From: Candidatus Omnitrophota bacterium
GTDB taxonomy: Bacteria; Omnitrophota; Gorgyraeia; Zapsychrales; JANLHA01
DNA: 64,000 nt
Reading direction: 5' to 3'
Assembly: GCA_020632555.1 (NCBI GenBank)
Contig: JACKFI010000001.1
Coordinates: 133,152 to 197,151 of the forward strand
The position numbers and the translations under genes are program-made. The notes beneath the pieces were generated by a model that did not search any database, was not told the origin of the DNA, and was given only the letters and a program-made list of their open reading frames with translations. Of this stretch, positions 26,919-37,015 are shown in pieces. The first letter of the stretch is position 1; every line of letters begins with the position of its first letter.

Positions 26919-27866
26919 TTATAATCGATCTGAATATTGTGAGATTGTACTTAAAATTTCATCAAACGATATTTGCCCCTGATAATACAATGTTGCAGTT
27001 TTTAGGCACTCCTTCTTAAATTGATCTCTTATCTTCGTATCTTTCAGCAAAAAAGCCTCCTGCTTTGCAATAGGAAACTTTTGATCTGCGACGGGAAATC
27101 TCTTCTTCTTATGCTCGTTGTATTCTGAAGTCCCGATAAACTTCTGAACCGTATCGTTTTGCAAAAGGCAAGCAACATCGTAATAATGCCGGATAAAATT
27201 AGCAGGCATCTTTCCGGACTCTTGCAGTTTCCGAAACTTTGTTGCGATTGTTTGCAATTTCTCAACAAACGTATAACCCAGATGATAGCACAAAACACCA
27301 CCAGCTCTATTATCCTTAACCTTGAGTCCATTCTGCAATGCAAAATCAAGCGCCCAAGAGCTAATATCCATCGGGCTGTTGGGCGTCACCTCATCAAACC
27401 CAACTTCGAGCAATACACCCTCTTTTATGCCGCCGGCAACAGAGAAAGCACTTTTGTAAAAAAGCCGTATTCCACCGCTAAAGAATTTTTCATTATCAAA
27501 TTCCGTGTCACGAATAATTCTTTGTATCCCATCAATATTAATTTTCTTCGCCAACCAGTCATAGTATTTCTTACGGCTTGCACAATGATCTGGTTTTATA
27601 TGGTTTGGACCTGTCTTGACTTCCATGCCGGCAGGCGGTTCGATACGAATATCAATGTCCTCAGAAAATCGATGAATAATGCCATACCCTTTTGAGAGCG
27701 ACGTACCTCCTTTGAGCTCGAAGGTAAATCCCCCTTGTTGCAAACCATATAAAACATGCATGATCCAATAATCTTTTTCAACCAGACTACGCTCTATCTT
27801 TTTTTCATGCTCTACAGCTCGCAAGAGTTCTTTAAATTCAGCGTGGTTATGTAAATAATCAGACAT
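26919..27866 (-). CDS. AbiEii/AbiGii nucleotidyltransferase toxin (type IV TA, DUF1814)
   Basis: 315 aa. LKGGTSLSKGYGIIHRFSEDIDI nucleotidyltransferase motif. 8-nt overlap with the upstream antitoxin-like gene. Confidence 0.85.
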   Translation of the reverse strand: MSDYLHNHAEFKELLRAVEHEKKIERSLVEKDYWIMHVLYGLQQGGFTFELKGGTSLSKGYGIIHRFSEDIDIRIEPPAGMEVKTGPNHIKPDHCASRKKYYDWLAKKINIDGIQRIIRDTEFDNEKFFSGGIRLFYKSAFSVAGGIKEGVLLEVGFDEVTPNSPMDISSWALDFALQNGLKVKDNRAGGVLCYHLGYTFVEKLQTIATKFRKLQESGKMPANFIRHYYDVACLLQNDTVQKFIGTSEYNEHKKKRFPVADQKFPIAKQEAFLLKDTKIRDQFKKECLKTATLYYQGQISFDEILSTISQYSDRL

Positions 27867-28452
27867 GTGCTAAGTTTCCCTCTAACATCCATTGATTAAA
27901 TAAAGTTTTTGTTCTTTCTCCTGCATAAACATTGACCGCGCGCTTCATCTGAGATTCTGGTTCTTTCAGCACTTTTTCCTTAACACTTCGCAAAACACTT
28001 TCCCGATCTTCCGCTAACTCATTTAAATTGTTCAGTAAATCAACCAGTAGAAATTCTTCGGACAATTCTCTGGGGAATTTATGCTTTAATCGAAAATCAA
28101 ACTCCTTTCCACCAAGAACGAATTGACCATGCCGTTTATGATTATAAACAAAGCGCGTATTGTACAACTGCGTAGTTCCCACTCCTAAAGAATTGTAAAG
28201 GTTAGGCGAGGTTAAAAGAAAATCATCGCTTTTTAAGAAGGCCCGTACCAATTTTTCGTCTTCCGGTGGCACAGAGCCAAACGAGGCTTTTGCAGGATAA
28301 TAGTACAATCCCTGTGACATTTTTTGCAAGGTCCCCTCATCAACCAGTTGCTTTAAATGCCGATCAACCGCGGTTGACCATTGCTCCAGATCAACCCTGC
28401 GATAAACCTGTCCCGGTTTTAAATGCCTTTTAAGTTCGCTAAGCGCGTCCAC
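27859..28452 (-). CDS. AbiEi-family antitoxin-like protein (wHTH)
   Basis: 197 aa. N-terminal wHTH-like HLKQLVDEGTLQKMSQGLYYYP. Positioned directly upstream of AbiEii and overlapping it. Confidence 0.65.
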   Translation of the reverse strand: MDALSELKRHLKPGQVYRRVDLEQWSTAVDRHLKQLVDEGTLQKMSQGLYYYPAKASFGSVPPEDEKLVRAFLKSDDFLLTSPNLYNSLGVGTTQLYNTRFVYNHKRHGQFVLGGKEFDFRLKHKFPRELSEEFLLVDLLNNLNELAEDRESVLRSVKEKVLKEPESQMKRAVNVYAGERTKTLFNQWMLEGNLAHV

Positions 28453-28568: not shown

Positions 28569-29918
28569 CTAATTGTGATGATTAGCCATCATCCAATCAA
28601 GCACCCCTTTAACACGACGCCAGACAGTAGCCATCTCATGGGCATAATACCGAGCCTCATCCTCTCCGCCCATAGATAAATAATCAGGAATCGCCTTCAA
28701 ACGGAAACCTTTGACAAGATAATTAGGAATAAATTTATTTGTTTTAAAAGCGCGCGCCATCATTTCCCTTGATTGCAACGAATCACCTTCTTTAATAAAC
28801 CACACCAACGCCCTCGTGTAGCACCATGGCGCGGAGCAATCATTCGCATACGGCCCATCCTCCATGAATTGTTCAAGTTCCGCAAATTTCGATCTCTTTG
28901 CCAGATAGCCTGCAAGAACATAGCGCATTCCCTGATTGTCATTCTCATTCAAACACAGCATATCGCGACACACCTCAATCGCTTCGGCATGCTTACCAAG
29001 CTCCCATAAAATTTCCTGAAGTCCAGCCAAAGCGCGCATATACGGCCTTGATTCCAGCAAAGCCCAAAATTGTCCGGCATTCTCTATAAAAAATTTTTGC
29101 CCTAATGCTTCTTTGCCAACCCTAACCCCTTGTAAAAAGTAGGTTGCGGCTTCGTCAAGATACTCTGCTGAATCACCTAAAACAACGTAGGCATCCGTGC
29201 AATTCGGATCAAGATTTAAAGCTTTTTGAGCCAAACCAACACGCTCATCAGAATCAGCCCGCTCCCATGCTTCATAAATCAACTCTTGAGCGATACGTGC
29301 AGGCGACGCATCTGCGAGCTCAGAGGCGGCTTCACCCAATTCTCTTCTTAAGTAAGTCTTCAAATCTTCCTCTTTTGGAATACCCCAAAGAATATTTCTA
29401 AGATCTGGTGGGACCTTGTAACCGTAAAGTGCCGAAAACGTCTCGATCGGAAACCCGTATTTCAGCGCTCCCATGGGCATGCCATTCAATTGAGCGGCTA
29501 CGACGGCCGCAGGATCCTCGTCCTTCTTAGCTTTACTCAGCCACCAGCGGGAATTTAAGACCATCTGGTTCATGGAGGCAAGCACACTGCGATCATTGGC
29601 TTTATCGACGACAATCTCGTCACAGCCTTGCAAAACTTTCTGCATCATTTCACTTGGACAATGCGTATGAAACATAGCACGCGAAAGCCCTTTGTAAAAA
29701 AGTTCACGAAGGTTTTTGAGATCCTTTTTCTTCACTCCCGCGACAAGGAAAGAAAACAGCGTCGATCGATGAGTAAAAAGCAGCTGCTTCTTGTGCTCAT
29801 GATAAAATAAATTCACGAACCATTCTGAAACAGATGGACTATCAGTGTTCAAAGATAAAGACTGAGGCTTGATACCGCTAAACAATAAAAACTTTTGTGT
29901 CCCACGTAAAAGAATCAT
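28569..29918 (-). CDS. Hypothetical protein with C-terminal TPR-like helical repeats
   Basis: 449-aa ORF, coherent with no internal stops. C-terminal half is helical-repeat-like (AQELIYEAWERADSDERVGLAQKALNLDPNCTDAYVVLG). No function assignable. Confidence 0.55.
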   Translation of the reverse strand: MILLRGTQKFLLFSGIKPQSLSLNTDSPSVSEWFVNLFYHEHKKQLLFTHRSTLFSFLVAGVKKKDLKNLRELFYKGLSRAMFHTHCPSEMMQKVLQGCDEIVVDKANDRSVLASMNQMVLNSRWWLSKAKKDEDPAAVVAAQLNGMPMGALKYGFPIETFSALYGYKVPPDLRNILWGIPKEEDLKTYLRRELGEAASELADASPARIAQELIYEAWERADSDERVGLAQKALNLDPNCTDAYVVLGDSAEYLDEAATYFLQGVRVGKEALGQKFFIENAGQFWALLESRPYMRALAGLQEILWELGKHAEAIEVCRDMLCLNENDNQGMRYVLAGYLAKRSKFAELEQFMEDGPYANDCSAPWCYTRALVWFIKEGDSLQSREMMARAFKTNKFIPNYLVKGFRLKAIPDYLSMGGEDEARYYAHEMATVWRRVKGVLDWMMANHHN

Positions 29919-29994
29919 TTTTTAATAACCTAACGTTGTTAAATCACCTACAAGCGCCCTCGTTTTGTCATACACTGCGTAATGGTCAATAAAA

Positions 29995-30012
29995 ATGTGC
30001 CAGATTTGTGCC
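29995..30012 (-). promoter_or_regulatory. sigma54-promoter-like motif, copy 2
   Basis: Minus strand reads TGTGGCACAAATCTGGCACATTT (TGGCAC-N5-TGGCA). 77 nt upstream of the 449-aa ORF start. It shares a further ~17 nt (TTGACCATYACGCA) with copy 1. Confidence 0.45.
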
Positions 30013-30017
30013 ACATG

Positions 30018-30546: not shown

Positions 30547-31560
30547 TCATATTGAAACGTGGCATTGCCCATTGCCAAGATCAACAAAATTAATTTTAAC
30601 ATCCATGAACTTCTCAATAATCTCGGCATTGGTAAGGCTGTGCAGCGTCAGGGCCGTAGTTTTAAATTCTCCACCTTTGGCCAAAGCAAACGGGATCAAA
30701 AGCTGATCAGCCAAATACGTCCCCACCGGAGCATCGATTTGTAAATATTTCTTTACTTGTTCAATGGCTTCATGCGCTACTGCTTCCGCGCTTTTACGCA
30801 ATTCTCCGAAACCCACAAACATTTCCCTGATATTTTCACTATCAACCTCAACCGTAAAAATATTTCCCGGACCTTGAGAATCCATGGCTTGAAAAATCTC
30901 ACTTTGATCATCTTCCAGAGAAAAATGTTTTTTAGCGACCGCGATTTCTCTGACAGCAACATTGCCAGGGATTTGGGCAAAGAGTGATCTTGCCTTTATG
31001 CCTTTAAGTTTGCCGCGCTCTAACAAAAATATGGGTTTTAATTTCTTTATAGGCACAATTTTAGCTTCGATCTTTCCGCCGCCGGCCGGGTAAAAACCGT
31101 GGCGATGCAAAGTCACTTCTAAATCCACACCCATTTGTTTGAGAATCGGCGCAAAAACTATTTTTAAAAAATCCACCGGGGGTGCGAAAGGATTATGCGT
31201 TCCTCCTTCGATCACAATTATGGATGGTGAGTCCGCGATCATCAAAGCCGGTAAAATGGTTTGCAAAACAAGAGTCGCGCTACCCGCCGTCCCAACTGAA
31301 AAATGGTATTCCCCTGCGGTGACTTCTCCCGGATAGAAAGTCAGCTTTTGCGAGCCGATAACATTCCCATCGACCTTTGCATCTCCAATCTTCGTAGCTG
31401 CTTCGACAGCCGTTAAATGCTGGCGTAAAAGCCCCGGCTTACTACGCTTAGCGCGGATATTCTCAATCGTAAACGGCTCGCCCGTTACTAAGGACAACCC
31501 GAGAGCTGTCCTTAGTATTTGGCCCCCGCCTTCACCGATTGAACCGTCGATTTTAATCAT
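30547..31560 (-). CDS. rtcA: RNA 3'-terminal phosphate cyclase RtcA
   Basis: 337 aa. MIKIDGSIGEGGGQILRTALGLSLVTGEPFTIENIRAKRSKPGLLRQHL, HRHGFYPAGGG, YLADQLLIPFALA. ATGA overlap with the upstream SPFH gene. Confidence 0.92.
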   Translation of the reverse strand: MIKIDGSIGEGGGQILRTALGLSLVTGEPFTIENIRAKRSKPGLLRQHLTAVEAATKIGDAKVDGNVIGSQKLTFYPGEVTAGEYHFSVGTAGSATLVLQTILPALMIADSPSIIVIEGGTHNPFAPPVDFLKIVFAPILKQMGVDLEVTLHRHGFYPAGGGKIEAKIVPIKKLKPIFLLERGKLKGIKARSLFAQIPGNVAVREIAVAKKHFSLEDDQSEIFQAMDSQGPGNIFTVEVDSENIREMFVGFGELRKSAEAVAHEAIEQVKKYLQIDAPVGTYLADQLLIPFALAKGGEFKTTALTLHSLTNAEIIEKFMDVKINFVDLGNGQCHVSI

Positions 31561-32306
31561 TTGACCTCTTTGGTTCTCACCGGAACGACTTGACCCGATA
31601 CTCCTAAGACAATCGTACTTCCCGGTGATTGTAAAGCTCGCAATTGCAATAACGCAGGATTGTCTTCCAACACTTTAGAAACATTGGCCAAATTGCGCAA
31701 AGACGCGGTTTCTCCGCGGGCACGTTCCAATGCCGCCAACCCTTCTTTTTGCGCCTCAACAACCTTAGCAAAGATTTTCTTTAATTCACCCGGAAACATA
31801 ACGTCCTTAACGCCGATGAGCGTAATTTTTAAACCGATTTCCTTCGCTTTGGCAACCGTCGCTTCCATCAACTTTTGATTAATCGTTGCTCGCTGTGCCA
31901 AAACCTCATCGATCGCTAAAGAGCCAATGATGTCACGAACTGCCAATTGTACCACCGCGTATAAAGCCTCGGTGTAACTAGCGATCTTATTAACGGCGAT
32001 GTTGGCATCTTCGATCTCATATTGCGCCGTAATGCTGACCTTTAAGGACACATTGTCCGAACTTAAGACTTCCTGCCCCGGGATCGTGATGACTCGAGGA
32101 CGAACATCGATCTTAACGATGATCGTATTCTGAGAAAACTTAAAATAACGACCCGGTTCCAAAATTCCGACAAATTTTCCCTTGCGATATTTTAAACCCT
32201 TCTCATATTCAAGAATAGTGACAAAATATTTTGCACTAAAAACCGCAATGACGACCCAACCGATAAAGCCGAGCACCGCCATGCTTACTAATGTTGATAA
32301 TGTCAT
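31557..32306 (-). CDS. SPFH/band-7 (stomatin/slipin-like) membrane protein
   Basis: 249 aa. N-terminal TM helix. SPFH core VDVRPRVITIPGQEVLSSDNVSLKVSITAQYEI, then a coiled AKVVEAQKEGLAALERARGETA segment. Confidence 0.85.
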   Translation of the reverse strand: MTLSTLVSMAVLGFIGWVVIAVFSAKYFVTILEYEKGLKYRKGKFVGILEPGRYFKFSQNTIIVKIDVRPRVITIPGQEVLSSDNVSLKVSITAQYEIEDANIAVNKIASYTEALYAVVQLAVRDIIGSLAIDEVLAQRATINQKLMEATVAKAKEIGLKITLIGVKDVMFPGELKKIFAKVVEAQKEGLAALERARGETASLRNLANVSKVLEDNPALLQLRALQSPGSTIVLGVSGQVVPVRTKEVK

Positions 32307-32602
32307 TTCTTTCTCCTTTTGTTTTTAAAAGTTCTGTCTTAAAAAAATTGTAGAATCGCAGTGGAGGTTGTTGACCTGCAAGACGGCTTTTCTACGAGCA
32401 ACTTTCTTAAGACAGAACGTGGGGATTTGAACCCCTCGGATTACTCCTTGACCAGGGCGAGCGTTTATCTGCAAAATGATATGGCCGATGCCATGTCATC
32501 GCACTGGATTCGCTCGCATATTTTTTTATCCCAATTTTTGCTAAAGGATTTTGCTTTTGGTAAATTGGGATTACGCAAATTTTTTCTATCGAAAATCTGC
32601 CT
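32307..32602 (-). ncRNA. Structured non-coding spacer between rtcB and the SPFH gene, with a tRNA T-arm-like motif (candidate ncRNA or tRNA remnant)
   Basis: No ORF. On the minus strand: 10-bp hairpin ATCCCAATTT/AAATTGGGAT (32528-32571); 7-bp stem GCGAGCG/CGCTCGC (32457-32517); exact T-arm GGGGTTCAAATCCCC (rc of 32421-32435); 12-bp stem GTTCTGTCTTAA/TTAAGACAGAAC (32331-32342 with 32407-32418) followed by TTTT. Confidence 0.35.
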
Positions 32603-34120
32603 TTAAGCTGCTCCTTTTAAACTTTTATCTTCATCTTTAATAACAAACCGCGCTTTTAACTTTGCCACAGGACTCGCCAGCCCGGCGCTCTCGATTGATC
32701 TCAAAACTTCTTTGAAATCTTTATAAGCCGCAGGGGCTTCATCCAAAGGATATTGCCGGCAATTAGACAGAATGTCATTGTCTTTGAAACTCTGGTCGAC
32801 TTCCTGTTGGACCAAAGTTCTCATCGCCGCCTTCCGTCCCAACGCACGACCAGCGCCGTGATTAACGCTGTAACAACTTTTTTCTGCGCCCGGATCAGCA
32901 ACCATAACAACCGAGCCATCTTTAGGATTACCCGGAAGCAAAATCGGATGTCCGGTATCAGCAAACAAAGTGTCCTTTAATGCAAAGTGTCCCGCCGGGA
33001 AAGCCCGCGTCGCCCCTTTGCGGTGGACCCAGACTTTTTGATTGTCCACCACTTCCTGCCGGGCAATGTTATGGCTGATAAAATAAACCAACTGCCCTTT
33101 TGTTCCAGGAACCACCTCTTGAAACGCTTCTAAAACCAAAGCATTGATTAACAGATGATTGATCGTCGCAAAATTAGCGCCCAAGGCCATGTCATTCAAG
33201 TAGGCATCTGCTTCGGGCGTTCCCAAGGGCGCATACACCAACTCCTTATCCTCGCCCGGCAATGGAATATCCCAAACCGAGAATTTATTTTGCAAGGTCT
33301 TGAATTGATGCTGCGCTAAATGATAACCAAAACCGCGCGAACCGCAATGCGAGAGAAAGGCTACCTTGTTATCTTGAAGCCCAAAGACTTCGGCCACCTT
33401 CTTGGCGCGCTCATCATTCTCGATTTCAACAACTTCGCATTCTCCAAAGTGATTTCCACCACCATAAGAACCCAATTGCGAAATCTTTTTCTCAAAATTA
33501 TCGAACAATCCCGTATCGATCAAAAATTGCAATCTTTGACCTAAGGCATCGGCTGTTCCATCATGCCCGACGTGAAAAGCATCTTCGCAACGCAAAGCCC
33601 AATCCACAGGAATGCCTAATTGCTCGCAGACCGAAGCCGAAGCACCCTGGATAGCGACTTGTTTACCCAGGATTTCATTGACCCGTCTCGCCTTCTTAAC
33701 TGAACGCTGCCCCTGCCCCGCACCCGTCGGGGTTCTTTCAAGGATCGCGTTAATTAAAGCCCGACGGGTGCTTTGATCAATGACGGCATTTGCCGGCAAA
33801 TCCATTTGCAATAAACTCATCGAACACTTAATGTCCACACCAACCGGACCAGGATATATATGAGTAGGTGACACCAGAACACAACCAACCGGTGCGCCGT
33901 ACCCGCAGTGAGCATCTGGGTTCAATACTAAATCGGTAACCCCGGGAGCGCCGCGAGAATTTAAAGCTTGTTGAATACAAAGGTCATCAAAAGTTTTTCT
34001 GATCGCCTCGGTTCCAATCACCGTGATTGGTTTTCCTTCACTATTATGCATAGGAAGAAAACCCGTTGCTTCCCCGGTGGCATGAATTCTTGAAGTTGAT
34101 TCGTTCGTTTGTTCTGACAT
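32603..34120 (-). CDS. rtcB: RNA 3'-phosphate ligase RtcB
   Basis: 505 aa. DAHCGYG, HCGSRGFGYHLAQH, ISHNIARQE, VHRKGATRAFP, NHGAGR. Confidence 0.95.
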   Translation of the reverse strand: MSEQTNESTSRIHATGEATGFLPMHNSEGKPITVIGTEAIRKTFDDLCIQQALNSRGAPGVTDLVLNPDAHCGYGAPVGCVLVSPTHIYPGPVGVDIKCSMSLLQMDLPANAVIDQSTRRALINAILERTPTGAGQGQRSVKKARRVNEILGKQVAIQGASASVCEQLGIPVDWALRCEDAFHVGHDGTADALGQRLQFLIDTGLFDNFEKKISQLGSYGGGNHFGECEVVEIENDERAKKVAEVFGLQDNKVAFLSHCGSRGFGYHLAQHQFKTLQNKFSVWDIPLPGEDKELVYAPLGTPEADAYLNDMALGANFATINHLLINALVLEAFQEVVPGTKGQLVYFISHNIARQEVVDNQKVWVHRKGATRAFPAGHFALKDTLFADTGHPILLPGNPKDGSVVMVADPGAEKSCYSVNHGAGRALGRKAAMRTLVQQEVDQSFKDNDILSNCRQYPLDEAPAAYKDFKEVLRSIESAGLASPVAKLKARFVIKDEDKSLKGAA

Positions 34121-34243: not shown

Positions 34244-35842
34244 ATGAATACAAAAATTGCTATTGGGCTACTTGGGACAACCCTCGATCAAGGGAAAGAT
34301 GAAAATCGCTGGAACAAGTGGCGTCCGACCATCTCCCTTTTTCAGCACGAAGACCTCTTGATCCATCGTTTTGACTTGCTATACGAAAAAAAATTTCAAG
34401 ATCTTGCCGAGCAAGTTATTTCTGACATCAAATCCATCTCCCCTGAAACCAGAGTTGTGCCCCACATTATTGAAGTGAAAGACGCGTGGGATTTTGAGAA
34501 TATGTACAGCGTCCTTTTTGACTTTGCCCGCAATTATCCTTTTAATATAGAGAAAGAAGAATATCTCATCCACATCACCACCGGATCGCACGTAGCGCAA
34601 ATTTGTGAATTTCTTTTAACTGAAAGCCGATACTTCCCAGCTAAACTCATCCAGACCTCCCCTTCCAAAACCGAAGGCTTTAAAGGCGAATACCGCATCA
34701 TTGATCTTGACCTTTCTAAGTACGACAACATCGTCAAGCGATTCCGTAAAGAACAAAGAGAAAATTTATCATTTCTTAAATCCGGGATAGCGACTCGCAA
34801 TAGTAAATATAATCGGCTCATTGAACAAATCGAACGCGCGACGATCAACTCTAATGCCCCGCTTCTTCTCACCGGCCCGACCGGTGCCGGAAAATCACAT
34901 CTTGCCCGACAAATTTTTGAACTCAAAAAGATTCACAACCAAATCAAAGGCCAATTTATCGAAGTCAACTGCGCGACTCTGCGCGGAGAAATGTCGGCCT
35001 CCACCCTTTTTGGGCATGTCAAAGGAGCATTTAACTGCGCCATCAAAGACCGAATGGGATTATTACGCGAAGCCAATGAAGGGGTTTTATTTCTCGACGA
35101 GATTGGAGAATTAGGGATCGATGAGCAAGCCATGCTTCTTAAAGCATTGGAAGAACAAAAATTCTTGCCCATCGGCAGCGACGAGGAAGTTGAAAGTAAA
35201 TTTCAGTTAATTGCCGGGACGAATTTAGACCTTGGCATTGAAGTTGATAAAGGCAATTTTCGCACCGACCTCTACTCCCGAATCAATCTTTGGACATTCT
35301 CATTGCCTTCTCTTAAGGACCGTCCTGAAGATATCGATGCCAACATTGAATTTGAATTAGAAAAGTTTTCACAAACACACAATATCAACGCCACCATCAA
35401 TAAAGAAGCCAAAGATGCCTATTTGAAATTTGCGACATCAGAGAAAGCATTATGGAAAGCGAACTTCCGTGACTTGAATGCCTCCATCATTCGCATGACC
35501 ACATTAGCCGACGGCGGGAGAATCAATATTGAACTTGTGCAGGAAGAAATTGACCGGTTAAATAAACTTTGGAAGAGAAGCGAAGATACTCAAGAAGCGG
35601 AGATACTCGAACGTTTACTAACTCAAGAACAACTGCAAAAGCTAGACCGGATTGAAAAAATCCAATTGATTGAAGTTATAAAGATTTGCCGCGAATCACG
35701 CAACCTGTCTGAAGCCGGCCGCATTTTATACAATGCTTCCCGCACACTCAAATCAAGCACCAATGACGCCGATCGACTTAAAAAACTTCTCGCCCGCCAC
35801 GATCTATCCTGGGACCAAATTAAAAACGCTTCCGTACTATGA
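34244..35842 (+). CDS. rtcR: RtcR: CARF-domain / AAA+ bacterial-enhancer-binding-type regulator of the rtc operon
   Basis: 532 aa, divergent from rtcB. N-terminal ~185 aa RtcR-type CARF region. Walker A LLTGPTGAGKSHLA. LFLDEIGELGIDEQAMLLKALEE. C-terminal HTH. The L1 loop reads GAFNCA (35024-35041) instead of GAFTGA. Confidence 0.9.
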   Translation: MNTKIAIGLLGTTLDQGKDENRWNKWRPTISLFQHEDLLIHRFDLLYEKKFQDLAEQVISDIKSISPETRVVPHIIEVKDAWDFENMYSVLFDFARNYPFNIEKEEYLIHITTGSHVAQICEFLLTESRYFPAKLIQTSPSKTEGFKGEYRIIDLDLSKYDNIVKRFRKEQRENLSFLKSGIATRNSKYNRLIEQIERATINSNAPLLLTGPTGAGKSHLARQIFELKKIHNQIKGQFIEVNCATLRGEMSASTLFGHVKGAFNCAIKDRMGLLREANEGVLFLDEIGELGIDEQAMLLKALEEQKFLPIGSDEEVESKFQLIAGTNLDLGIEVDKGNFRTDLYSRINLWTFSLPSLKDRPEDIDANIEFELEKFSQTHNINATINKEAKDAYLKFATSEKALWKANFRDLNASIIRMTTLADGGRINIELVQEEIDRLNKLWKRSEDTQEAEILERLLTQEQLQKLDRIEKIQLIEVIKICRESRNLSEAGRILYNASRTLKSSTNDADRLKKLLARHDLSWDQIKNASVL

Positions 35843-35934
35843 TCAATCCCTAATTTAATCATCCGTGATAGTTTATTTGAGAATTTATTGTAACCCCAAG
35901 AAGTGGCGTCAGGGGGGATTTTTGGTGCCAAAAC

Positions 35935-35952
35935 ATGTGCCAGATTTGTGCC
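35935..35952 (-). promoter_or_regulatory. sigma54-promoter-like motif, copy 3
   Basis: Minus strand reads TATGGCACAAATCTGGCACATGTT. Lies 25 nt downstream of the HEPN gene and points antisense into the 3' end of rtcR. No downstream minus-strand gene. Confidence 0.35.
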
Positions 35953-35976
35953 ATAGCAAAATGCCATCTTTTTGTA

Positions 35977-36384
35977 TCACTTTCCCATCATCTCTCTGAC
36001 CCATTGATAAACCCGGGTAGTCACCTTGACCATTTCATCAGCATCGGCTCGATTAACACTACGGCATTCATACTGGATCACATTCTTTCGGGCAATGATT
36101 TTGCGTAATTGCTTGGCTTTTTCAGCAGCGCCATCAATCGGCAATTTTGAAACCAGCTCACAGACATCCAAGTGATCTTGGGAAATTGACCGAACACCTT
36201 TTTCATTCACACAAATCGCATCCGCCGAAGAAATCGCACATTGCAATGCCAACGTTGCCGCGGCGTTCCAATTCTCAGCATGAAAAGCAATGAGCATTTG
36301 ATCGTAATTGTCCGATGCCTTTTTCAGATATTCACTAGCGGCAGATTTGCTCTCTTCTCTCACCTTCATTTCACGCGCTGTCAC
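35977..36384 (-). CDS. HEPN-domain protein (HepT-like toxin of a HEPN/MNT module)
   Basis: 135 aa, all-helical. Rx4-6H-type motif RSISQDH. Lies immediately downstream (1-nt gap) of the MNT gene. Confidence 0.7.
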   Translation of the reverse strand: MTAREMKVREESKSAASEYLKKASDNYDQMLIAFHAENWNAAATLALQCAISSADAICVNEKGVRSISQDHLDVCELVSKLPIDGAAEKAKQLRKIIARKNVIQYECRSVNRADADEMVKVTTRVYQWVREMMGK

Positions 36385-36385
36385 A

Positions 36386-37015
36386 TCACACCTCCAAAGG
36401 TTCTTTTCCGTATAAAACTGAATAGGATTTCATTAATGTTGATATCGGCGGAAGATTCTTTTTAAGACGTTCACGAAATTCAGCCGCTGACTTTACATAA
36501 AAATCCAAATGAATACCAAAATATGACTTAAACCGATCCGCAATGCTTGAATTAAAAACCTCCGCAACCTGCTTCGTATGGCTTGCCTTATCGACAACAA
36601 CGGCCACATCAACATCGCTTTTTTTATTTGCTGTACCTTGCTGAACACTTCCATAAAGGATCAAAGAAACAATATCCGTCTTGATCCCGCCTTTCTTTAT
36701 CTCCTCCAAGAGCAGATCGCGGATCTCTCCCTTATAATTACTCTCCGCCTCGAACATCGGGCGAATAATTTTTTGAACGATGCGGTCCTCTTCATTCAAA
36801 GAATAGATATGCTGTTTTCCGATGACTTCGACATTAAGAATATTGTGTGCCTGAAGATTCTTTAATGATTCGTGGGTAGCAGGCACAGAAAAACCAGACA
36901 ATTTAGCAATCTCGCGGCCCGTGGCTCTTAATCCTTTACGGATAGTCAGAACACGCAGGATGGCCACCGCTGACTGCGTCCCAACAATTTCACTGATTTG
37001 GAAAGGAGAATCCAT
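36386..37015 (-). CDS. Minimal nucleotidyltransferase (MntA-like antitoxin) with N-terminal winged-helix domain
   Basis: 209 aa. N-terminal wHTH (GREIAKLSGFSVPATHESLKNLQAHNIL). NTase motif LILYGSVQQGTANKKSDVDVAVVV. Confidence 0.8.
   Translation of the reverse strand: MDSPFQISEIVGTQSAVAILRVLTIRKGLRATGREIAKLSGFSVPATHESLKNLQAHNILNVEVIGKQHIYSLNEEDRIVQKIIRPMFEAESNYKGEIRDLLLEEIKKGGIKTDIVSLILYGSVQQGTANKKSDVDVAVVVDKASHTKQVAEVFNSSIADRFKSYFGIHLDFYVKSAAEFRERLKKNLPPISTLMKSYSVLYGKEPLEV

Follow-up and report, generated by a model that had tools for sequence, protein, structure and literature searches.

Within a 64-kb stretch of the genome of a Candidatus Omnitrophota bacterium (contig JACKFI010000001.1; this whole stretch is called the window below), the gap between rtcB and the downstream gene of an SPFH/Band-7 protein of the slipin type (the spacer; 296 nt, 32307-32602, minus strand) contains a structured RNA with a genuine tRNA-type T-arm. 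We show that the fold of this RNA is maintained by compensatory change in at least three named phyla (Omnitrophota, Verrucomicrobiota and Planctomycetota) as well as on many other contigs, and that the RNA is tied one-to-one to a slipin subfamily, with or without rtc genes nearby. On balance, we lean towards the view that 32331-32517 represents a widespread slipin-leader RNA, most probably the predicted Band-7-associated tRNA-like RNA (b7a-tRNA), which would be both the RNA partner of slipin and its translational operator. What was known before is most probably an unvalidated prediction and an un-annotated family, to which the present analysis adds a structural model and the evidence for a one-to-one linkage with slipin. 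Bacterial SPFH/slipin proteins are widespread and their function is poorly understood, and little is known of what bacterial RtcB acts on and of the cofactors it uses; an RNA that carries a T-arm, accompanies slipin one-to-one and is sometimes found in RtcR-controlled operons offers a testable handle on both proteins. Furthermore, as the family lies outside Rfam, genome annotation misses its copies, and the model, covariation and coordinates presented here enable the construction of a seed alignment.

Architecture and covariation of the leader RNA

The conserved element covers ~187 nt of the minus strand (32331-32517), stops 25 nt short of the slipin ATG and has a three-part fold, in which a 5' hairpin (P1) is succeeded by a T-arm lying beside a GG-containing, D-loop-like linker and by a ~90-nt 3' rod (P4). 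The minimum free energy of the spacer (-90.5 kcal/mol) was compared with that of 200 dinucleotide shuffles (-59.9 +/- 4.6 kcal/mol; z = -6.63), none of which was found to be as stable (0/200). P1 is built on a 7-bp stem (GCGAGCG/CGCUCGC; 32517-32511 paired with 32463-32457) that is capped by a 34-nt hairpin (32503-32470; apex GGC-AUCG-GCC), the apical AUC of which is at least 97% conserved in the family consensus. It is followed by a variable linker with a D-loop-like 'UGG(U)' motif (32456-32448; CCUGGUCAA), by a 3-bp mini-hairpin with a GNRA loop (32447-32438; GGA-GUAA-UCC) and by the tRNA-type T-arm (32435-32421; GGGG-UUCAAAU-CCCC, GGGGUUCAAAUCCCC). The P4 rod (32418-32331, ~88 nt; inverted repeat I1) consists of a basal helix, which contains a perfect 12-bp stem (GUUCUGUCUUAA/UUAAGACAGAAC) and reaches 19 bp when G-U pairs are counted, and of two 5-bp helices set between internal loops; its apex (32379-32363) reads GCAGGU-CAACA-ACCUCC in the window and YUGYRGGU...RCCYCCRC in the family consensus. 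Directly after P4 there is a UUUU tract (32330-32327), and the ribosome-binding site of slipin (GGAG, 32316-32313) and its start codon (ATG, 32306-32304) follow, all of them on the minus strand. With respect to a cloverleaf, the window copy thus lacks both the D arm and the anticodon arm; what it has is the T-arm, the GG linker and an acceptor-like stem of 7 bp.

A preliminary description of the spacer, made from its letters alone, had listed a 10-bp hairpin, the GCGAGCG/CGCTCGC stem, a T stem-loop and a 12-bp stem followed by TTTT, and all of these helices were found where it had placed them. Its view of the whole spacer as one structured unit needs to be narrowed: 32331-32517 is conserved, while the first 77 nt (32530-32606, minus strand), comprising two hairpins and the stop codon of rtcB, are a lineage-specific insertion. 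The 10-bp hairpin (AAUCCCAAUU.../...AAUUGGGAU, at ~32568-32530) lies within this insertion, which is missing from the three closest loci that share the rtcB-spacer-slipin-rtcA order (L082, L083 and L084; aligned over ~215 nt) and that otherwise align end to end; the covariance-model match begins downstream of it, at 32520. No second copy of the insertion was found within the window, and the idea of a repeat element was rejected on account of this single occurrence.

The same description had named compensatory changes in relatives as one way to check its helices, and such changes are clearly present. Two alignments were left unfitted to any model. The first, of 11 Omnitrophota-like sequences (group A; MAFFT and RNAalifold), revealed compensatory double changes in 22 of the 58 predicted pairs, and the second, of 20 sequences from a group with slipins ~50% identical and mostly from soil metagenomes (group B; aligned independently of group A), revealed compensatory changes in 20/48 pairs. 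A further alignment of 27 sequences was fitted to a covariance model and hence leans towards the model structure, for which reason the unfitted alignments are taken as the independent check. In these 27 model-aligned sequences, standard pairs occupy 94% of the cells (as compared to 40-50% when partners are slid by 1-3 columns), double changes affect 52/58 pairs (shuffle mean 35.2), and none of 500 shuffles attained the observed value in any of five measures.

The changes are distributed over the entire fold. In the P1 region (helices 1-4) every pair except one shows double changes; the outer pairs of P1 pass from GC/CG to UA/UA in L084, and the mini-hairpin GGA-GUAA-UCC becomes GGC-GAAA-GCC in L084 and GGA-GCAA-UCC in L083. 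The stem of the T-arm (helix 5) covaries as well (UUGG/CCAA to CUGG/CCAG within group B), and in P4 (helices 6-8) double changes were recorded in 19/19 basal and 12/15 upper pairs. Since G-U pairs are frequent and the reverse-strand model matches are weak and partial (20-28 bits, in the P4 rod only, versus 155-207 bits forward), we conclude that the transcribed strand is that of slipin. An 81-amino-acid open reading frame on the opposite strand (32361-32606) was considered as the source of the conservation and was rejected, as the pattern of G-U and compensatory pairs fits an RNA of the slipin strand.

Among the 64 distinct family members the T-loop G[GU]UCRA is present in all (64/64). A nearby GG recurs in most of them (as 'UGG' after P1 in most members outside group B), which is compatible with a putative tertiary contact of the T-loop/D-loop elbow type. 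The surroundings of the T-arm vary between clades: most Omnitrophota-like members have a small hairpin 5' of it; in group B the T-arm comes directly after P1, and another small hairpin, whose loop contains GG, lies 3' of it; and in a rare variant (L100) it is preceded both by a D-like hairpin and by an anticodon-like arm (5-bp stem, 7-nt loop CUGUUAA). In the consensus, the most conserved bases are found in the distal loops of the long rods and not in a compact junction pocket, a pattern more typical of sites at which proteins or RNAs dock.

Linkage to slipin and position in the transcript

The distribution of the RNA was assessed in two sets of loci, one selected by RtcB homology (80 loci, 70-75% identity, from Verrucomicrobiota, Planctomycetota and others; 845 kb) and one by slipin homology alone (L086-L165; 80 metagenome loci, 47-72% identity). 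Covariance models were built from 11 Omnitrophota-like sequences (R1) and from 27 diverse matches (R2), and linkage was scanned over 86 sources (85 slipin-selected loci and the window). In nearly all of L086-L165 a T-loop motif (GG[GT]TC[AG]A) is located 100-165 nt upstream of slipin and on the same strand. R2 was recovered directly 5' of slipin, on the same strand, as 77 full-length and 3 contig-truncated copies; the remaining 6 of the 86 sources are contigs without any sequence upstream of slipin, so that all testable loci (80/80) are positive. The window itself holds a single match (32324-32520, minus strand, 155 bits). In the 845 kb of RtcB-selected loci, R2 yielded 3 matches only (L039, L050 and L002), each of them directly 5' of a Band-7 gene, and no spacer after rtcB resembling that of the window was found in this set.

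The RNA-Band-7 pair adjoins RtcB in the window, in L082-L084, in L093 and in L039, L050 and L002. Throughout L086-L165, rtc genes occur near slipin at two loci, as only L093 has rtcR, rtcB and rtcA and L100 has rtcA only, and the stand-alone copies are neighbored by unrelated genes (encoding panB, DinB, a GT2 glycosyltransferase, an M17 peptidase, MarR or a radical-SAM enzyme). Taken together, RNA and slipin form a self-contained module of two parts, the association of which with rtc genes in the window is secondary. A partnership with RtcB or RtcA specifically, which had been proposed on the basis of the window alone, is accordingly not borne out: it is slipin that the RNA follows.

As regards the place of the RNA in the transcript, every one of the 64 distinct copies has the slipin ribosome-binding site beginning 3-25 nt beyond the base of P4. 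The group-B copies share a conserved sigma-70-type box (TTCGACA-17-TGATATAA) that ends ~10 nt before P1, and their ribosome-binding site comes 3-4 nt after P4, with neither a U-tract nor a terminator between RNA and gene; a U-rich tail after P4 is restricted to group A. At the corresponding pre-P1 site of L002, beside a divergent rtcR, there is a sigma-54-type sequence (TGGCACGGCGGTTGC). The promoter-proximal position and the ribosome-binding site just after P4 lead us to conclude that the RNA is made as the 5' leader of slipin; in the window, where the RNA-slipin pair is situated between rtcB and rtcA, it forms an intercistronic part of the operon. A promoter-like site inside P4 (32374-32347) was treated as a chance match, its sequence being different in relatives such as L091.

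Several individual loci deserve mention. In a Luteolibacter metagenome-assembled genome (L075, 600-1627), a leader with the T-arm CCGG-UUCGAAU-CCGG lies 5' of a distant Band-7 gene upstream of rtcB, in the order sigma-54 promoter (TGGCACGAGGCATGCA), T-arm leader and Band7-RtcB-RtcA; the RNA family probably extends past what R2 models. A Planctomycetales metagenome-assembled genome (L039, 3354-7497) contains an operon-like block of rtcR, slipin RNA, Band-7, 8 tRNA genes, 2 YrlA and then rtcB, in which the ordinary tRNAs (Gln x2, Arg x2, His, Pro, Leu x2) form an unusually dense mixture with the tRNA mimics. In L108 (1-287) a genuine tRNA (47 bits, truncated by the contig end) stops exactly where the slipin RNA starts, which suggests that the two are co-transcribed and that processing of the tRNA sets the 5' end of the RNA.

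Known RNA families and possible roles

In the passage devoted to it by Wang et al. (bioRxiv 10.1101/312249), b7a-tRNA is presented as an RNA that Burroughs & Aravind 2016 predicted beside Band-7 and RtcB, is called unvalidated and is described with the words 'strongly resemble an authentic tRNA'. As portrayed there, it shares with the slipin-leader RNA the nature of a tRNA-like noncoding RNA and the position next to Band-7 and, in some genomes, next to RtcB; neither has an Rfam entry, and by genomic context the two are most probably the same. Our literature searches found no other description of a slipin-leader RNA, and Rfam 15 has no entry for the element. The window and 31 related loci were scanned with the Rfam models at the gathering score, and the spacer together with 11 divergent members was scanned more permissively (E<=10, E<=5 or E<=1); no family matched the element (YrlA, Y_RNA and tRNA included), and the sole echo in the spacer was a 15-nt T-arm of mascRNA (E=8.7). 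That the element is not a tRNA, as had been stated from the outset, was confirmed, since neither the Rfam tRNA model nor ARAGORN made a call in the spacer (three ordinary tRNAs were found elsewhere in the window), and ARAGORN likewise left the native copies at related loci uncalled. The idea of a permuted tRNA was also dropped, 1920 circularly permuted constructs having given no ARAGORN call even at a relaxed threshold.

A close parallel among described RNAs is the bacterial Y RNA YrlA, which is also a tRNA mimic of rtc/RNA-repair operons with a canonical T-arm, long stems and a proposed role as cofactor of a scaffold protein. The two differ in module order (stem, T-arm, acceptor hairpin, D-arm and stem in YrlA, closed by pairing of its 5' and 3' ends; P1 hairpin, linker, T-arm and P4 rod in the slipin RNA, which has no such closing stem), in the partner gene (Ro60/Rsr versus slipin) and in organization, YrlA being a separate gene and the slipin RNA a leader that abuts a ribosome-binding site. 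In most of the RtcB-selected loci, T-loop motifs are clustered just upstream of rtcB and not downstream of it, and 9 Rfam YrlA matches (70-84 bits) were obtained directly upstream of rtcB in 7 of the 11 loci scanned; the RtcB clade of the window is thus usually accompanied by Y-like RNAs, to which the slipin RNA appears to be functionally analogous. The tRNA-like domain of tmRNA, and mascRNA as an example of a tRNA-like structure excised from a longer transcript, provide a further comparison, as they too combine a T-arm with a reduced, stemless D-loop analogue and have no anticodon arm; unlike in these, the 7-bp stem of the slipin RNA is capped by a hairpin and leaves no free acceptor/CCA end, the T-arm runs into the 90-nt rod, and our data give no sign of cleavage by RNase P or RNase Z.

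Two observations at related loci concern these Y-like RNAs. In L084 (427-4235; slipin 83% identical) a vWA_Ro60 gene and T-loop motifs are present upstream of rtcB, and the slipin RNA downstream of it; both candidate ribonucleoprotein modules are therefore found in one operon, the Ro part having been lost in the window lineage. Furthermore, the tRNA model gave ~140-nt matches (37-40 bits) just 5' of rtcB in L003 (5631-5770), L077 (5693-5846) and L084 (1527-1668), which look like tRNA-like RNAs with a large insertion and are called by neither the YrlA model nor ARAGORN.

With regard to function, we propose that the RNA may be the cognate partner, and also the translational operator, of a membrane-anchored slipin oligomer, the resulting particle being analogous to that of Ro and Y RNA but tethered to the membrane. 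The tRNA-like elbow could engage tRNA-recognising enzymes such as RtcB and, as the RNA is physically the 5' untranslated region, its binding could also set the translation of slipin, in the manner of threonyl-tRNA synthetase on the thrS leader. In Escherichia coli this leader is a tRNA-like operator in the mRNA of the synthetase, and its binding by the encoded protein is proven. As a tRNA mimic placed immediately 5' of the ribosome-binding site of its own gene it is a possible model for autogenous control; it differs from the slipin RNA in that it mimics anticodon arms and not a T-arm, and in that protein binding is, for slipin, a supposition. The slipin of the window has an N-terminal transmembrane helix followed by a K/R-rich segment in its translation, a feature that, by the positive-inside rule, points to a cytoplasmic orientation of the SPFH domain. 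A bolder and still tentative proposal holds that this slipin subfamily could consist of RNA-binding scaffolds, on whose SPFH ring or cage the leader would be loaded in cis, giving a vault- or Ro-like ribonucleoprotein that docks repair enzymes with an affinity for tRNA features, such as RtcB and RtcA, at the membrane or senses tRNA damage. If true, a slipin-RNA scaffold would represent a type of membrane ribonucleoprotein of which bacteria have so far offered no proven example. In a variant reading, the T-loop and GG-loop hairpins would not mimic a tRNA and would form a platform that binds the elbows of cellular tRNAs, as do T-box stem I and RNase P.

A number of points weigh against a slipin-leader RNA of this identity and role. 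Its equation with b7a-tRNA rests on context and on a second-hand account, in which that RNA is described as near-authentic tRNA, while the tRNA-like features of the window copy are limited to its T-arm, GG linker and closed 7-bp stem; the wording 'authentic tRNA' suits rare variants such as L100 better than it suits the window, where all of the tRNA searches (Rfam model, ARAGORN and the circularly permuted constructs) were negative. Binding of the RNA by slipin, by RtcB or by any other protein is something that we only infer. All predicted folds leave the ribosome-binding site unpaired and no switch is visible, the one-to-one link holds for the slipin subfamily that was sampled (loci chosen at 47-100% identity), and a Band-7 protein only 29% identical (L075) has a T-arm leader that R2 misses.

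The most serious contender, which partly overlaps the explanation that we favor and which we regard as rather unlikely, is a purely cis-acting leader that would control the translation of slipin or the stability of its mRNA (for instance a riboswitch, a device that senses a tRNA-binding factor, or an element that stabilises the 5' end) without any role as protein partner. In its favor are the constant place of the RNA at the start of the slipin message, where P4 lies 3-25 nt from the ribosome-binding site in 64/64 distinct copies, and the lack of a terminator between RNA and gene in group B; nevertheless, we see no expression platform, none of the predicted folds sequesters the ribosome-binding site, and the most conserved bases sit on the distal rod loops instead of a junction pocket. 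The ACCUCC of the P4 apex was examined as an anti-Shine-Dalgarno sequence that could mask the ribosome-binding site of slipin and was rejected, as CCUCC is replaced by CCCCC in group B, where the change from A-U to G-C fits pairing within the local hairpin. Given the lack of an expression platform and of a conserved anti-Shine-Dalgarno sequence, a riboswitch is unlikely. We consider it improbable that the element is an intrinsic terminator or attenuator reducing read-through from rtcB into slipin-rtcA. The perfect 12-bp stem of the window (19 bp with G-U pairs), which runs at once into UUUU, and the U-rich tails after P4 in group-A relatives would suit such a device, but the terminator scan of the window did not call it, most family members form the beginning of their transcript (a position that would be pointless for a terminator), group B lacks a U-tract and starts its ribosome-binding site 3-4 nt beyond P4, and the conserved T-arm, P1 and apical motifs are not needed for termination. 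Partial termination after P4 in the window operon is possible as a side effect.

The preliminary description had offered two further explanations, of which the first, a YrlA-type Y RNA acting as a ligand of Ro60/Rsr and in concert with RtcB, we deem very improbable. What remains of it is a tRNA-mimicking, structured RNA with a genuine T-arm in a repair operon; membership in the Y-RNA family has to be given up, as the YrlA model (RF02553) matches neither the spacer, at the gathering score or even at E<=10, nor the 11 divergent members. The T-arm, the long irregular stems, the location in an rtc operon, the YrlA copies directly upstream of rtcB in relatives and the vWA_Ro60 gene in the L084 operon all speak for this explanation; against it stand, besides the absence of a match, the differing order of modules, the lack of room for an rsr gene in the window (where rtcR abuts rtcB) and the fact that the element accompanies slipin at loci without Rsr or RtcB nearby. 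The second, according to which an integration event left behind the 3' half of a tRNA that has since decayed, hardly merits credence in spite of the exact T stem-loop and of the mobile/defence genes in the vicinity (AbiEii, HEPN/nucleotidyltransferase). Only 15 nt are tRNA-like, the T-arm is followed by a covarying rod and not by an acceptor 3' strand or CCA, and the ~190-nt fold, with its compensatory changes, recurs in several phyla (64 distinct sequences) and invariably lies 5' of slipin.

Gene neighbourhood in the window

The Pfam scan of 10 neighbouring open reading frames in the window identified a contiguous block of rtcR, rtcB, slipin and rtcA, and no match to the Ro60/TROVE family. 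The gene rtcR (34244-35842, plus strand; Pfam RtcR and Sigma54_activat, a sigma-54 activator) is divergent from rtcB (32603-34120, minus strand; 505 amino acids, RtcB E=4.4e-102), which is directly upstream of the spacer. On the same strand as rtcB follow slipin (31557-32306; 249 amino acids, Band_7 E=2.4e-30) and rtcA (30547-31560; 337 amino acids, RTC and RTC_insert), the start of the latter overlapping the slipin stop codon. The Band-7 protein is named 'slipin family protein [Candidatus Omnitrophica bacterium]' in one database source, and the block recurs on one Logan contig. The rtcR-rtcB intergenic region of the window carries a sigma-70-like sequence (TTGACA-17-TATGCT), and no sigma-54 promoter was found in it.

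Downstream of rtcA a 449-amino-acid DUF6933/ST7-like protein is encoded (28569-29918), in place of which an RlaP nucleotidyltransferase follows rtcA in L083 and L084. The flanks of the rtc block are made up of toxin-antitoxin/defence-type pairs (AbiEii with a DUF6088-like gene, and HEPN with a nucleotidyltransferase; 26919-28452 and 35977-37015). Over the whole window, sigma-54-like sequences (TGGCAC-N5-TTGC, at most 1 mismatch) number 12, as compared to 4.8 +/- 2.2 expected, and 0/100 shuffles reach 12. Moreover, a 23-nt direct repeat (29991-30013, AAAAATGTGCCAGATTTGTGCCA; 35931-35953, AAACATGTGCCAGATTTGTGCCA; 96% identical, 5940 nt apart) brackets the entire rtcR-rtcB-RNA-slipin-rtcA-orf141 block; read on the minus strand it is sigma-54-promoter-like (TGGCAC-N5-TGGCA), and the pair could represent either the ends of an inserted cassette or two regulatory sites.

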